Origin: Candidatus Peribacteria bacterium RIFCSPHIGHO2_02_FULL_51_15
GTDB lineage: Bacteria > Patescibacteriota > Gracilibacteria > Peribacterales > Peribacteraceae
Direction: 5' to 3'
Assembly: GCA_001788965.1 (NCBI GenBank)
Contig: MFXU01000047.1
Location: 2,910-40,561 of the forward strand
Length of the DNA stretch: 37,652 nt
Shown: positions 16,709 to 21,553 of the stretch, one piece after another
Layout of the letters: each line of letters starts with the position of its first letter
How positions within the stretch are numbered: position 1 is the first letter of the stretch
Program-made: the position numbers and the translations under genes
The notes under the pieces: generated by a model
Told to the model about the DNA's origin: nothing
The model's database searches: none
The model's input: only the letters and a program-made list of their open reading frames with translations

Positions 16709-17013
16709 TAAATTGCTAAATGGCTAAATTGCTACGCCCATTCAATCAACTCAGGTCGACCTTATTCAGCCACAATCCCCAATGTCATCATGGGCGACCT
16801 GATACCACTTCGCGTTTAAAACGTTCTTAATCAGACGCGCTGGCGGTATGGAGTTCTTGGCTTGAGTAAACGCTACGCGGTACGAGATGATGCCGTTACG
16901 AATGACCGATTAGTTATGTTTTAAATGCAAAATGGTATGAGCTTGTCGAAGGTCGCAAGCGAAACGCACGTTCTTGCTTGCAAACAATTTAGCAATTTAA
17001 CAATTTAGCAATC
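16709..17013. repeat. Octamer-armed element copy B, containing a REP-like pair and MITE copy 3
   Basis: aaattgctaaatggctaaattgct ... cgcaagcgaaacgcacgtt ... aacaatttagcaatttaacaatttagcaat. Confidence 0.8.
16803..16937 (+). mobile_element. 135-bp MITE copy 3 (TSD TGA)
   Basis: TGA|TACCA...TGGTA|TGA. The empty site is the palindrome CGACCTGAGCTTGTCGAAGGTCG. Confidence 0.93.
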
Positions 17014-17031
17014 TGTTCCGAAGTCCAAAAA

Positions 17032-17301
17032 TTACTTCTTCAAATCTAACGCATCAATAACCTTCTGGTATTCATCCGTCTTGTTCATCCGAAGATAGGA
17101 CAGTAGCTTCCGGCGGCGCGAAACCTTGGCGATTAGCCCTCGTCTGGCTGAATTGTCCTTTTTGTGATCTCTGAGGTGTTTGGTCACCTGATCTATCTCC
17201 TTCGTGAGGATCGCAACCTGGACCGACGGGGAGCCTGTGTCGCCGTCATGCAGACGATGCTTGGTGATGATTTTCTTTTTCGAGGCGCGCTTCAGAGCCA
17301 T
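17032..17301 (-). CDS. rpsO: 30S ribosomal protein S15
   Basis: HDGDTGSPSVQVAILT, HKKDNSARRGL, RRKLLSYL. Upstream of pnp. Start Met13. Confidence 0.97.
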   Translation of the reverse strand: MALKRASKKKIITKHRLHDGDTGSPSVQVAILTKEIDQVTKHLRDHKKDNSARRGLIAKVSRRRKLLSYLRMNKTDEYQKVIDALDLKK

Positions 17302-17440
17302 AAAAATGGGGGTTAATTTCCCGAAGTGTAAAATCACAAACCTTCTTCGGGCCTTCTCCAGCGGATATCCGACAGGAAAAAGTGCGATAGCGGGCTTAGA
17401 CTAGCGGGACTTTGTCCAAAGTCAAGAAGCTGGACACGAT

Positions 17441-17551
17441 AAAGAAACCGAAGAAACCGACGAGTCCGAAGAAACCGAAGAAAAAAACCGGTTCATGACC
17501 TTCTGTTGCACTCCTCGGGTTCCTCGGTTTCCTCGGTTTCGTCGGTTTCCT
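17441..17551. repeat. 9-mer-armed hairpin (GAAACCGAA)n...(CTCGGTTTC)n
   Basis: aaagaaaccgaagaaaccgacgagtccgaagaaaccgaag ... cctcgggttcctcggtttcctcggtttcgtcggtttcct. Confidence 0.85.
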
Positions 17552-17560
17552 CCCAAAATA

Positions 17561-17589
17561 GTGGACAATCGTCCACCCTGTGCTAGTAT
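17561..17589 (+). promoter_or_regulatory. Promoter overlapped by candidate LexA operator GTGGAC-AATC-GTCCAC
   Basis: The palindrome at 17561-17576 overlaps TGGACA (-35). Extended -10 TG-C-TAGTAT at 17581-17589. Confidence 0.55.
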
Positions 17590-17596
17590 GGCCATT

Positions 17597-18772
17597 ATGG
17601 AAACTGCTTTGATCGTTATAGGCTTACTGATTGTCGCCGGAATTGGCGTTAACATAGCTCTTCAACTTAGAACACCCCCACCCCCAACCGGTTCCAGAGA
17701 CTTGAGTCTAGATTTGGCCAAAACTGAAAAAGAGCTTGAATCCGAGAAAGCGGAAAAGAACAAACTGGCCGGTATGAATAAGCAGCTTTTCGCCGAAATA
17801 CAACAAATTAAAGGGGACTTGAAAGCAACAGAAAAAGAACGTGACAGTCTCCAAGCTCGCGTGACCAAATTCGAGACCAATAAGGAACATCAAGAAAAGG
17901 AGAATAAAGAAATGATTCTAAACCAGGCAAATGCCCTAAAGGCTTTGGACGAAGAGCGACAGAGAGTAACCAAAGAGGATCAGGATCGGCAAAGGCTGCG
18001 AGAAGAAGAACGTGATCGGATTTGGGGCGAGCATGAAAACGATGTCATTTCGGCACTGCTCGATCTTTGCAAGCTTCCACAGTTTCAGTTCACCTGCTAC
18101 ACAAACAAAACTCTACCAGATGAATTCGACGGCAGTCTCAAGCCCGATTTTTTAATCGAATTTCTGGATCAATACGTTATTTTCGACGCCAAAGCGTCTA
18201 AAGCGCAGAGTTTGCAAACCTACATCGACGACGCTGTGAGAAAAACAGCGGACAAAGTCCGGAAAAACAAGAATATTTATCCTCACGTTTTCTTAGTCGT
18301 ACCGAGCCAGGCAATATCGGAGCTGAAGAAAGTGATTTATCCAAAAGATGAATTGATATTTTACGTGATTTCCCGGGAGGCATTAGCTCCGATTCTTGCT
18401 TCACTCAAAAGGATTTCTACTTATGAATTGGCTGAGCAACTGGATCCCCAAAAGCGCGAAAATATCATCAATATGATTGCCGAACTGGTGACCCATATCA
18501 GTTACCGGAATGCTCACGAACTGATCCTTACCCGGATGGGAGCGGATACAGTTGAACGCATCCAGCACATCGATCCCGATTTGGCGGAGGAGATTGATCA
18601 GAAACAATCTGAGAAAAAGATGACCCAGTTGACGATGTCAGAAATAAAACGCTTGGCCTCCAGCGTTTCCGAGCAAAAAAATGCCGCTTCACAGTTGGCT
18701 TCGCCGAAAGCTGCGGTAAAAAAACCGTTTATCCAAAGCGCTGAAACAGTCATTGCTGGAAAAATGCTTTGA
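17597..18772 (+). CDS. Membrane-anchored coiled-coil PD-(D/E)xK nuclease, RmuC-like
   Basis: N-terminal TM, long coiled coil, KPDFLIEF..QYVIFDAK and FLVVPS motifs. Start Met35 (alternative 17588). Confidence 0.7.
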   Translation: METALIVIGLLIVAGIGVNIALQLRTPPPPTGSRDLSLDLAKTEKELESEKAEKNKLAGMNKQLFAEIQQIKGDLKATEKERDSLQARVTKFETNKEHQEKENKEMILNQANALKALDEERQRVTKEDQDRQRLREEERDRIWGEHENDVISALLDLCKLPQFQFTCYTNKTLPDEFDGSLKPDFLIEFLDQYVIFDAKASKAQSLQTYIDDAVRKTADKVRKNKNIYPHVFLVVPSQAISELKKVIYPKDELIFYVISREALAPILASLKRISTYELAEQLDPQKRENIINMIAELVTHISYRNAHELILTRMGADTVERIQHIDPDLAEEIDQKQSEKKMTQLTMSEIKRLASSVSEQKNAASQLASPKAAVKKPFIQSAETVIAGKML

Positions 18773-18796
18773 CAGAATTCCGGTAGGGACTAAAGT
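18769..18796 (+). promoter_or_regulatory. sigma70-type promoter of the attenuated unit
   Basis: TTGACA-16 nt-TAAAGT. Confidence 0.7.
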
Positions 18797-18815
18797 TTGA
18801 TTAGTGTTGTTTCAA

Positions 18816-18869
18816 ATGTCTCAATTGAATACGCTCATCAGCCTCGTCCTCGTAGTCGTCGTTCCTTAG
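18816..18869 (+). CDS. Leader peptide MSQLNTLISLVLVVVVP (Val/Leu/Ile-rich)
   Basis: 17 codons, 10 of them Leu/Ile/Val, including four consecutive Val. Resembles ilv-type leader peptides. Confidence 0.7.
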   Translation: MSQLNTLISLVLVVVVP

Positions 18870-18874
18870 GAACC

Positions 18875-18929
18875 GCGCGAGCCGTGCTGAAATAAACCCA
18901 CCTCGCGCCAAGCGGGGTTTTTTGTTTTT
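18875..18929 (+). terminator. Attenuator antiterminator/terminator
   Basis: GCGCGAG (18875-18881) is complementary to CTCGCGC (18902-18908), which overlaps the terminator ACCTCGC-GCCAA-GCGGGGT-TTTTTGTTTTT. Confidence 0.7.
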
Positions 18930-18944
18930 ATTCCCATCAATACA

Positions 18945-19172
18945 ATGCCAAAATTCTCGGAAACACCACCGATGACCATCGTCCAATCCGAAGGCAATGG
19001 TTACGAGTTCTGGCACGGATCGGGGCGTATCACCGTGCGTAATTGCAATAATATCTTTCGAATGACCAGTGTGCTTGTCCGCAATATTCAGCCGGATGCC
19101 GATGTCGATAAGATAATTGAAGCGATGGGCAAAAAGGTTACTTCTGCAATTAAAAACGGATCGGATAAATAA
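18945..19172 (+). CDS. Small hypothetical protein (75 aa) downstream of the attenuator
   Basis: The ORF begins 15 nt after the U-tract. No family recognised. Confidence 0.65.
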   Translation: MPKFSETPPMTIVQSEGNGYEFWHGSGRITVRNCNNIFRMTSVLVRNIQPDADVDKIIEAMGKKVTSAIKNGSDK

Positions 19173-19194
19173 AATCTTCGATAAACGCGCTTTC

Positions 19195-19241
19195 GCATGG
19201 GCGCAACGCCCATGCCCCCACGGCCGGGACGGCCGTGCCAC
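19195..19241. repeat. REP-like palindrome pair
   Basis: gcatgggcgcaacgcccatgc and cacggccgggacggccgtgccac. Confidence 0.7.
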
Positions 19242-19315
19242 ATCGTAATCAGAAATTTTACTTGTCTTGATTCTTGATTCCTGGTTCTCATATGAAGCGC
19301 TAAGATCAATCGCCA

Positions 19316-21553
19316 ATGTCTTATGATGATCCGATACTCGGCCCGCTTAACGAATCGCAGAGAGAAGCGGTGCTGAAGATAAAAGGCCCAGCGCTGATAC
19401 TCGCTGGAGCCGGCAGCGGAAAGACACGCACGCTGACCCATCGCATCGCTTACATGATCGAACAGGGCATACCACCCTGGCAGATATTGGCGGTTACTTT
19501 TACGAACAAAGCTGCCGCGGAGATGAAAGAACGCATTCGGACCCTGCTCAAAATCACCAACGTCGAGGGCACCGAACGCGAGCATCTGCCGGCAAGCGGG
19601 ACTTTCCATTCCATTTGCGCCCGGATACTCCGCCGCGATATCGAAAATATCGGTCGAAACAGGAACTACGTGATTTACGATTCCGACGATCAGAAAAAGG
19701 TCATGCAGCATGTTTTGCGAAATATGAAGATCCCGCCGGAGGAGCTGAAGCCCCGGGCGGCCATGGCCCACCTCGGCCGGTTCAAATGCGAAGCTCTGAG
19801 TCCTCATGAAGTGAAAACCCAAGCCACGACTTACACTACCCGGCGTATGGCCGAAGTATATTCCGCTTACCAGCAGGAGCTGAAAACCGCCGACGCGCTG
19901 GATTTCGACGACTTGATACTCGAAACCATCCGGCTTTTCAAAGAATGTCCGAAAATTTTGGAAAGATACCAAATGACCTGGCGTTATCTGCATGTCGACG
20001 AATATCAGGACACGAACCATGCGCAGTACCTTTTCATCAGCCTGCTGGCAGCAGGGCAGCGGAACCTGTGCGTCATCGGCGATCCGGATCAAGCGATCTA
20101 CGCTTTCCGCGGCGCCGATATCCGGAACATCCTGGAGTTTCAAAAAGAATATCCGAATGCCGTTTCGGTGAAGCTGGAACGAAATTATCGTTCGACTCAG
20201 CAGATCCTGGATGCCGCCGACGCAATCATCGCGGCCAATCCGAACCGGCCACAGAAAAAGATGTGGACTGACCGGAAAGACGGGAAGCTGATCACGCTGT
20301 CGGAAGTTTTGGATGAGCGGCGCGAGTCCGAGGAAGCGGTGAGAGGGGTGCTGGAACGGCAAAAAGACGGCGTGCCGCTGATCGAGCAGGCGATTTTGTA
20401 CCGCACCAATGCCCAATCCCGCCTGCTTGAGGAAGCCTGCCTCCGGGCTTCGGTCCCCTACCGGATCTACGGCGGGGTGAAATTTTACGCCCGCCGCGAA
20501 GTGAAGGACGTAATCGCTTATCTGTATGTCCTCCTCAATCCGAACGACACGGTATCGCTTCTCAGAATCATAAACGTCCCTTCCCGGAAAATCGGCGAAA
20601 CGACTATCGGCCGGATGCAGAATTTTTGTAATGAACGAAGCCTGTCTCTGTGGCAGGCTCTCAGGCACATCGAAATGGTCGAAGGCCTTAGTGACCCGGT
20701 AAAGCAGCGGCTGATCGGTTTCGTGGAAATGATCGAAAGCCTGAAAAAGCTTTCGGAAACCGAAGTCGTAAGCGGTCTTGCGGCAAAACTGATCGAAAAA
20801 ACCGGACTCGAAAAACATCTGCGGGATGACACCGACGAAGGCGAGACGCGGTGGGAAAACGTGCTGGAGCTGCTCTCAGTGACCAAAAAATACGACTATC
20901 TCCAGCCGCCCGAATCACTTACCAGCTTCCTCGAAGAAGTCGCGTTGATTTCGGAAGTGGATGCCATGACCGAAACCCGTTCCGATTCGCTGACTCTCAT
21001 GACACTGCATCTTTGCAAAGGACTGGAATTCAGCTCCGTTACGGTCGTCGGCTGCGAAGAGGGGCTGCTGCCGCACAGCGCGGGGCTTTTCGATCACAAC
21101 CAACTGGAAGAAGAACGCCGCCTGCTTTACGTCGGCATGACCAGAGCGAAAGACCGTCTGACTCTGCTTCACACCATCCGCAGGACGCTGTGGGGGAAAA
21201 CCGAAAGTAACCTCCGAAGCCGGTTTTTGGATGACCTGCCGCACGCAGTGATCGAAGTGAAAAGCGATACCCTAAACAGCAAGTTCGGCTGGCTCACCAG
21301 TTCTGTAGTCGCCGCAACGTCCCAACCCAAACCCCAGCCCCAACCCTATAACGACTTCAATCAGGACACTTCTGCTGAAGAATGGCTGCAGCCAATCGAG
21401 GAAGAGCTCATCGACGGAACGCGCATACTCCACCGGACTCTCGGCGAAGGCACGGTCCTAAAGCGCAGCGGCGACGTGGTGGAAGTGCTTTTCGACAATG
21501 GGAAAAAGAAACATCTGGCGCTGGGAATAGCACCGATAAAGATACTCAATTAA
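19316..21553 (+). CDS. pcrA: UvrD/PcrA SF1 DNA helicase
   Basis: AGAGSGKT, TFTNKAA, VDEYQDTN, GDPDQAIYAFRGA, NYRST, KGLEF, EERRLLYVGMTRA and a C-terminal Tudor-like domain. Confidence 0.96.
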   Translation: MSYDDPILGPLNESQREAVLKIKGPALILAGAGSGKTRTLTHRIAYMIEQGIPPWQILAVTFTNKAAAEMKERIRTLLKITNVEGTEREHLPASGTFHSICARILRRDIENIGRNRNYVIYDSDDQKKVMQHVLRNMKIPPEELKPRAAMAHLGRFKCEALSPHEVKTQATTYTTRRMAEVYSAYQQELKTADALDFDDLILETIRLFKECPKILERYQMTWRYLHVDEYQDTNHAQYLFISLLAAGQRNLCVIGDPDQAIYAFRGADIRNILEFQKEYPNAVSVKLERNYRSTQQILDAADAIIAANPNRPQKKMWTDRKDGKLITLSEVLDERRESEEAVRGVLERQKDGVPLIEQAILYRTNAQSRLLEEACLRASVPYRIYGGVKFYARREVKDVIAYLYVLLNPNDTVSLLRIINVPSRKIGETTIGRMQNFCNERSLSLWQALRHIEMVEGLSDPVKQRLIGFVEMIESLKKLSETEVVSGLAAKLIEKTGLEKHLRDDTDEGETRWENVLELLSVTKKYDYLQPPESLTSFLEEVALISEVDAMTETRSDSLTLMTLHLCKGLEFSSVTVVGCEEGLLPHSAGLFDHNQLEEERRLLYVGMTRAKDRLTLLHTIRRTLWGKTESNLRSRFLDDLPHAVIEVKSDTLNSKFGWLTSSVVAATSQPKPQPQPYNDFNQDTSAEEWLQPIEEELIDGTRILHRTLGEGTVLKRSGDVVEVLFDNGKKKHLALGIAPIKILN

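Follow-up and report, generated by a model that had tools for sequence, protein, structure and literature searches.

The classical Val/Leu(/Ile) leader-peptide attenuators are those of Escherichia coli, ivbL (the ilvBN leader) and ilvL (the ilvGMEDA leader). Elements of the pheM-pheST type and similar ones attenuate aminoacyl-tRNA synthetase genes, and the curated leader families of Rfam include Leu, Thr, His, Trp and similar leaders. In mycobacteria, leaderless polycysteine short open reading frames (ORFs) have been described as Cys-responsive attenuators (bioRxiv 10.1101/834739). Here we analysed a locus in a 37,652-nucleotide (nt) stretch of Candidatus Peribacteria bacterium RIFCSPHIGHO2_02_FULL_51_15 (contig MFXU01000047.1, positions 2,910 to 40,561), which is called the window below and supplies all coordinates, and in which a short Val/Leu-rich leader ORF and two overlapping hairpins precede a gene for a protein of 75 amino acids (aa). 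This element is probably a working ribosome-mediated transcription attenuator of the Val/Leu type, one of a set of such attenuators in the family Peribacteraceae of the candidate phyla radiation (CPR), and it most likely turns on the small, fast-evolving protein when Val/Leu is scarce.

With ivbL and ilvL the element shares a short Val/Leu-rich leader ORF, the 1:2, 2:3 and 3:4 pairings, a U-tailed terminator before the first controlled gene, and a stop codon placed so that a terminating ribosome would block region 2. It differs from them in having no sequence or covariance-model relationship to them, as a cmscan of 17000-20500 against Rfam at E <= 10 returned no leader family and only chance matches to microRNA (miRNA) models. 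Moreover, the Peribacteraceae leader is half as long (15-25 codons), near-leaderless and without a Shine-Dalgarno (SD) sequence, and in the window it would control a small protein of no matched family, not a biosynthetic operon, in a genome without the ilv/leu markers searched for. With the mycobacterial short ORFs it shares a leaderless sensory ORF as first cistron, where pausing at the codons of one amino acid alters downstream RNA structure, and the occurrence of several loci under one signal, termed a ‘ribulon’ in the description of that system (bioRxiv 10.1101/834739). The mycobacterial device is there described as freeing a sequestered ribosome-binding site, which is translational control, and both lineage and amino acids differ; in Peribacteraceae, the U-tailed terminator with its overlapping antiterminator points instead to transcriptional control. 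The mechanism itself is a known one; what distinguishes the locus is the lineage, the leaderless start and the cargo. A full-text literature search found no paper on attenuators in Peribacteria or on leader-peptide attenuation in the CPR. The features of the locus are as follows.

18769-18774, + strand: -35 box TTGACA, overlapping the TGA stop (18770-18772) of an upstream 425-aa ORF
18791-18796, + strand: -10 box TAAAGT, after a 16-nt spacer from the -35 box
18804-18869, + strand: leader ORF, 21 codons from GTG 18804 or 17 from ATG 18816, with the stop TAG at 18867-18869
18834-18863, + strand: regulatory codon run (region 1), reading Leu, Ile, Ser, Leu, Val, Leu, then four Val
18875-18886, + strand: region 2, the 5' half of the antiterminator, GCGCGAG (18875-18881) plus GTG (18884-18886)
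18899-18908, + strand: region 3, CAC plus CTCGCGC (18902-18908), common to the antiterminator and the terminator 5' arm
18900-18929, + strand: intrinsic terminator, stem 18900-18906/18912-18918, loop GCCAA, then a T-run
18945-19172, + strand: controlled gene for the 75-aa protein, shortened to 66 aa in public gene calls, which begin at the internal ATG 18972
19301-19318, + strand: -10-like box TAAGAT (19301-19306), 9 nt upstream of the uvrD start ATG 19316; 3' limit of the cassette

A preliminary description of this DNA, made from the letters alone, had named the promoter, the 17-codon ORF, the GCGCGAG/CTCGCGC complementarity and the U-tailed hairpin, and each of them was recovered where it had been placed. 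Read from ATG 18816, the 17 codons include 5 Val, 4 Leu and 1 Ile, with four Val consecutive. A terminator scan returned ACCTCGC/GCCAA/GCGGGGT at 18900-18918, followed by TTTTTGTTTT, with a hairpin energy of -11.0 kcal/mol. The competing antiterminator pairs 18875-18886 with 18899-18908 over 10 base pairs, at -12.7 kcal/mol. When 18800-18935 is folded free of ribosomes, the Leu/Val codons pair with GCGCGAG and the terminator forms; the fold has an energy of -37.2 kcal/mol (z = -3.0), and equally good folds were found in 0 of 200 shuffles.

The same arrangement recurs well beyond this genome, in many genera of a family of tiny symbiotic bacteria from groundwater. In a DNA search of 40 relatives, window positions 18835-18927 were matched in other genera, with the flanking genes barely matching. 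The matched loci repeat one layout, namely TTGAC(A/T) and a -10 box, then a short ORF that has a Val/Leu core and ends at a stop codon beside GCGCGAG-like bases, followed by a CCTCGCGC-loop-GCGGGG-T6 hairpin and, about 20 nt on, a new ORF. Because it is conserved in other genera, the layout as a whole stands above chance. The leader region of the window is 74-78% identical in nucleotides to those of loci L139-L141, though the synonymous sites of the adjacent ORF are saturated.

A covariance model (R1), built from six copies (alignment A1), matched 42 of the 151 Peribacteraceae genomes, in 29 of the family's 84 genera. The 62 matches examined consist of 54 leaders, seven gene ends, where the gene of a GroEL-like or membrane protein finishes and a terminator of similar type comes next, and one locus (L031) that was left out as the script found no candidate upstream ORF (uORF) and that by eye carries a Val/Leu leader. 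By composition, the 54 leaders divide into 30 Val/Leu, 17 Ile, one Thr and six others. Outside the family, R1 had two matches in 135 genomes from elsewhere in the class, both ordinary gene ends with terminators, a result that means ‘not found’ and not ‘absent’ because R1 was made from close relatives and used with strict filters. A motif scan of named genomes gave 51 matches, many of them chance terminators in unrelated phyla. As to the gene ends, the GroEL-like genes in L048, L057, L059 and L060 finish in a Gly/Met-rich tail, and the CCCCCGCG-loop-CGGGGG-T terminator behind it resembles the leader terminator enough to be picked up by R1 and shows a preferred terminator type with GNRA-like loops across the family.

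Whether the leaders have the geometry of a switch was assessed in the 30 members of the Val/Leu class. With a ribosome on the last Val/Leu codon and with the terminator 3' arm absent, the antiterminator takes at least 5 nt of the terminator 5' arm in 27 of them, so that the two hairpins use the same bases in the window and in these family members, in agreement with the mutual exclusivity put forward in the preliminary description. Compared with shuffles, the antiterminator folds have a mean z of -2.77 (z < -2 in 23/30), and the antiterminator is stabler than the terminator hairpin in 29/30. In 28/30, half or more of region 2 would lie under a ribosome at the stop codon; the last Val/Leu codon is a median of 4 codons ahead of the stop, and the terminator is part of the full-length minimum free energy (MFE) structure in 24/30. 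The proposal that Leu/Val codons sequester GCGAG likewise held: it is seen in the MFE structure of the window, and uORF bases hold region 2 in 25 of the 30 leaders as well as in the consensus fold of six sequences.

Covariation was tested on a plain MAFFT alignment (A3) of the 30 sequences. For the antiterminator, 82% of alignment cells are paired (slid controls 19-62%), and its covariation score of 0.161 against 0.094 was equalled in 0 of 500 shuffles; for the terminator, 80% of cells are paired (slid controls 36-55%), with a score equalled in 1 of 500 shuffles. The frame, start spacing and stop position of the leader ORF are conserved across all 30, and the downstream ATG lies a median of 21 nt past the T-run, the same 21 nt as in the window.

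The start of these leaders is unusual when set beside the E. coli systems. In 27 of the 30 Val/Leu leaders, 5-11 nt separate the end of a TAnnnT motif from the start codon, which makes them near-leaderless, and in most related loci TTGAC lies 35-40 nt upstream of the first leader ATG. In the window, the in-frame GTG 18804 lies 7 nt past the -10 box and ATG 18816 lies 19 nt past it, and the GTG fits the usual spacing of related leaders better. The 740 long ORFs of the same genome (G000) carry a strong leaderless signature, a spacing that the leaders share: in 213 of them, a TAnnnT lies 6-9 nt upstream of the first ATG, and SD-like motifs are found at only 29.

The analysis establishes the anatomy of the element, its conservation, the mutually exclusive pairings, the coding nature of the small gene and the absence from this genome of the ilv/leu markers searched for. 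Translation of the leader, a signal given by the charging of Val/Leu tRNA, and a role of the small protein in a starvation response are what we infer. The likely course of events would be the following. Transcription would begin a few bases before the leader start codon, and a ribosome would load on the near-leaderless message right behind the polymerase. With Val- and Leu-tRNA charged, the ribosome would reach the TAG and cover most of region 2 (GCGCGAG), leaving region 3 to pair with region 4, and the resulting U-tailed hairpin would halt transcription before the 75-aa gene. A ribosome stalled in the Leu/Val run would instead cover region 1 and leave region 2 free; regions 2 and 3 would then form the antiterminator, and the polymerase would continue into the 75-aa gene. 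If no ribosome were present, region 1 would hold region 2 and the terminator would form.

The main reason for accepting a charging sensor in the Val/Leu class comes from its sister leaders, since the Ile and Thr leaders precede cognate genes. Of 17 Ile-rich leaders, all in relatives, 11 stand immediately before genes resembling citramalate/isopropylmalate synthases (8) or threonine dehydratases (3), and six of these 11 genes were confirmed by NCBIfam (e.g., TIGR00977 with 467.9 bits versus a cut-off of 450). The Ile leaders before synthases are found in L050, L051, L054, L056, L061, L064, L043 and L044, and those before IlvA-like genes in L052, L053 and L055; they share the attenuator layout of the Val/Leu class, and the Ile antiterminator takes in the stop codon itself. 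In L071 (303-428, genome G096), eight consecutive Thr codons and a terminator lie directly 5' of thrS, which matches TIGR00418 with 605 bits (cut-off 384). The antiterminator of this Thr leader is weak in the fold test (z 0.1). The arrangement in L071 is that of the pheM-pheST type and therefore indicates that the family uses attenuation beyond biosynthetic operons, although it belongs to another genome and another amino acid, and the window element precedes neither a synthetase nor a transporter.

One further candidate attenuator was noticed in the genome of the window itself, at C51:5403-5560 (L137:54-215). It has a TTGACA, a -10 box, a GTG-started 20-codon ORF with four Arg codons (three consecutive) and a U-tailed hairpin, with a fold z of -1.2. 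The 439-aa product of the gene that follows has a weak likeness to acetylglutamate kinase/synthase (63.9 bits, far under the cut-off).

The expectation that the organism is an amino-acid auxotroph was borne out as far as the searches reach. The genome (1.18 Mb, 97% complete) has no match to the HMGL-like, IlvD or class-IV aminotransferase (IlvE) families and one weak partial match to KARI_N, and RelA/SpoT domains are present. This is in line with the Peribacter genome paper, whose relevant passages report few amino-acid biosynthesis genes and amino acids taken from outside (PMC4736985).

The element has a variable genomic setting beside uvrD. In 21 of the 30 Val/Leu cases, one leader cassette or a tandem of cassettes separates a conserved upstream gene from the uvrD orthologue. 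As the cassette is absent in some relatives and other genes occupy the same spot, we regard it as an accessory insertion at a variable site; the unit of promoter, leader, attenuator and small gene is inserted between the upstream gene and uvrD, with uvrD keeping its own leaderless promoter. Six loci that encode the 75-aa protein or a relative of it were available as DNA, and in five of them (window, L021, L139, L140 and L141) a Val/Leu-rich uORF and terminator lie directly upstream, in keeping with the earlier expectation of a conserved uORF rich in branched-chain amino acid codons before homologues of this gene; L138 is the exception. Control of uvrD as the purpose of the attenuator was considered and rejected: uvrD has its own -10 box, and there are relatives lacking the whole cassette, in which (G001, G002 and G018) this box lies 7-10 nt before the uvrD start. 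No terminator was found between cassette and uvrD in the 21 loci, so read-through into uvrD is possible.

Other observations on this region concern its neighbours. Neither Pfam nor NCBIfam gave a family for the upstream 425-aa gene. The sequence at 17447-17545, where this ORF is annotated to start, is nearly palindromic, contains repeated short units and drew three chance-level Rfam matches (miRNA models, E 0.11-9.6), and the true start of this ORF may lie further downstream. Between the 75-aa ORF and uvrD, at 19191-19257, there is a repeat resembling repetitive extragenic palindromic (REP) elements and made of two GC-rich hairpins (fold of 19185-19262, -31.8 kcal/mol). The same genome has about 14 more copies, some of them partial, spread over six contigs, and there are copies in G001. 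Elsewhere (L127-L132, L138), the contents of the hotspot differ: G013 has another leaderless small ORF there, G012 a long palindromic sequence, and L138 a 132-aa gene with its own promoter.

The controlled gene was described at first as a small orphan, which is right in that it belongs to no known family and too strict in that a narrow family exists, with close relatives in L021 and L138-L141 and a few database proteins. Its pN (nonsynonymous differences) of 0.15-0.25 is far below its pS (synonymous differences) of 0.62-0.81 in the comparison of the window, L138 and L139, which shows that the 75-aa ORF codes for a protein and is subject to purifying selection. The family evolves fast. A search of 5.8 billion proteins gave two relatives. 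A profile search of 1.84 billion representatives gave 16 matches, 10 of them small unnamed relatives and six long repetitive proteins; five of these six were scanned against Pfam, and their matches were judged compositional. At E <= 1, a Pfam scan of the 75-aa protein returned just DUF2694 (E 0.12, below its cut-off), and the ESM Atlas held unnamed clusters only.

AlphaFold2 (AF2) models have a low mean predicted local distance difference test score (pLDDT) of 65-66 and contain four strands and one C-terminal helix; the alignment behind the A5-based model mixes clusters that are not demonstrably homologous. None of the structural matches to the AF2 model was significant (best Foldseek E 0.55; best VIA Z 5.2, to unrelated chains). 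The faint ACT/IlvN likeness suggested in the preliminary description thus found no support in the Pfam scan, in the predicted strands and helix or in the fold comparison.

The cargo of other Val/Leu leaders falls into many tiny BLAST groups that are not demonstrably related to the 75-aa protein. Three clusters of cargo ORFs had been aligned as one family (A4, A5), but hhalign gave probabilities of 8.5%, 0.1% and 3.7%, and this single grouping was therefore withdrawn; the A5-based model and the A4 profile search rest on it. The A5 profile found no further members among 43 small ORFs. A depletion of Leu/Val in the cargo proteins was also considered and set aside as too weak (mean Leu 7.0% versus 9.7% in neighbouring large ORFs).

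A number of observations weigh against reading the locus as a Val/Leu attenuator. The first of them concern the window itself. Promoter-like matches in 3 kb number two, against 3.3 expected from shuffles, so the promoter alone is at chance level. The leader start is ambiguous between GTG 18804 and ATG 18816. Region 2 begins 5 nt past the stop codon, 5 nt more distant than in most relatives, and five of the seven bases of GCGCGAG are within <=13 nt of the first base of the stop, or three of the seven if MFE partners are counted. The antiterminator is only slightly stabler than the terminator hairpin (-12.7 versus -11.0 kcal/mol), and once the 3' arm is included the MFE structure retains the terminator even under a stalled ribosome; the switch must therefore be kinetic. 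There is no RNA run with the locus among the 17 runs containing the stretch, all of which are DNA contigs from groundwater or soil metagenomes. As for the relatives, G001 (of the same genus), G002 and G018 have no cassette and their upstream gene abuts uvrD, and L138 holds a close homologue of the 75-aa gene without a leader.

Further points of the same kind come from the Val/Leu class as a whole. The first ORF after each of the 30 leaders is one of 70-226 aa, and 0 of the 10 scanned have a Pfam match; the pairing of leader and cognate gene found for Ile and Thr is therefore absent here. A gene making, loading or importing the sensed amino acid is a usual feature of attenuators, not a strictly defining one. 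In addition, the ‘other’ class of six contains four true unbiased leaders, one Val/Leu-like leader without a canonical start, and one doubtful case. The four unbiased leaders (L024:2109, L027:1979, L028:2109 and L029:988) have the full layout of promoter, uORF, antiterminator and terminator, and the layout alone is therefore no proof of amino-acid sensing. Leaders of this unbiased kind (L024:2109-2250, L027:1979-2105, L028:2109-2235, L029:988-1088, L140:~880-1040 and L141:~520-680) sit in second cassettes of the uvrD hotspot; they have 18 codons, a conserved C-terminal part, antiterminator z values of -2.3 to -3.4, and their own terminator and small ORF.

These last points are what gives some room to the strongest of the alternatives, a ribosome-dependent attenuator that reports a general slowdown of translation or a peptide-dependent pause, caused by a hydrophobic nascent chain or by Pro near the stop, and not the charging of Val/Leu tRNA. 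Besides the four unbiased leaders of identical architecture and the missing link between the controlled genes and Val/Leu metabolism, many Val/Leu leaders finish with Pro and two codons before the stop, as a pause of this kind might lead one to expect. We nevertheless regard it as unlikely. Val (26%) and Leu (19%) make up 45% of the 540 residues of the 30 leaders, with runs of 3-6 Val codons, while in the long ORFs of the genome they reach 6.5% and 9.7%. The Ile- and Thr-rich sister leaders stand before cognate genes, and a peptide of 15-25 residues would still be inside the ribosome exit tunnel.

The codon usage of the leaders also goes against a purely amino-acid reading. GTC accounts for 117 of 140 Val codons (84%) and CTC for 70 of 102 Leu codons (69%), compared with 34% and 21% in the genome, which implies that RNA pairing constrains the leader codons as well. 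Part of the Val/Leu bias may thus reflect the need for CUCGUC-type bases that pair with region 2. Taken further, this extreme bias, together with the 74-78% nucleotide conservation where neighbouring synonymous sites are saturated, would suit a device made of RNA only, such as a structured 5' leader or a small RNA ending at the terminator and perhaps bound by a protein or ligand, with the frame incidental to CUCGUC pairing repeats. We consider such a device improbable, and more so than the slowdown or pause, on four grounds. Despite indels, all 30 Val/Leu leaders analysed retain an open frame whose start keeps its spacing from the -10 box and whose stop directly adjoins region 2, with the proviso that the script's choice of frame favoured starts at the usual -10 distance. 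The other two frames of the same bases would give no Val/Leu. The Ile and Thr classes change their codons together with the genes they precede. Lastly, no Rfam family matched at E <= 10.

That the short hydrophobic peptide is itself the product, as a membrane-active peptide or a type I toxin with the hairpin merely as its terminator, would account for its strong hydrophobicity and its conservation. It is nonetheless very improbable: with 15-25 residues and a hydrophobic core of 9-10 residues the peptide is too short to span a membrane, a downstream ORF is always present at a median of 21 nt past the T-run, and neither the antiterminator that overlaps the terminator nor the Ile and Thr variants would be given a role. 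Chance, by which the hairpin would do no more than terminate the upstream 425-aa gene and the ORF would be noise, could draw on the hairpin's position 130 nt past that gene, the lack of enrichment in promoter-like matches and the commonness of CCCGCG-loop-CGGGG-T terminators in Peribacteraceae, and is scarcely credible given that the cassette-free relatives, where the upstream gene abuts uvrD, have no leader-type hairpin between the two genes, and that the whole unit of promoter, uORF and hairpin recurs in 29 genera and at other loci.

The Val/Leu attenuator remains the preferred explanation of the locus, and it has a bearing on a group of bacteria, the CPR/Patescibacteria, whose gene regulation is almost unexplored because the organisms are uncultured. 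The locus represents a sequence-defined sensor open to direct testing, with its sister elements for Ile (cimA, ilvA) and Thr (thrS) as internal positive controls. It would mean that classical leader-peptide attenuation is present in a CPR lineage and has been adapted to leaderless, SD-free translation. More tentatively, and with clearly less confidence than we place in the attenuator itself, the conserved near-leaderless Val/Leu element may act in the auxotrophic Peribacteraceae as a portable ‘starvation gate’ that itself hardly changes and whose cargo turns over fast at the uvrD hotspot. Such cargo would be lineage-specific starvation effectors, e.g., growth-arrest or host-acting proteins without detectable homology between genera, and together with the Ile, Thr and possibly Arg attenuators it might form a ribosome-read regulon in this CPR lineage. 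That the Val/Leu sensor class probably drives small hypervariable proteins, not biosynthetic genes, in a genome apparently unable to make Val or Leu points to a response of a symbiont to the failure of its host- or community-derived amino-acid supply.

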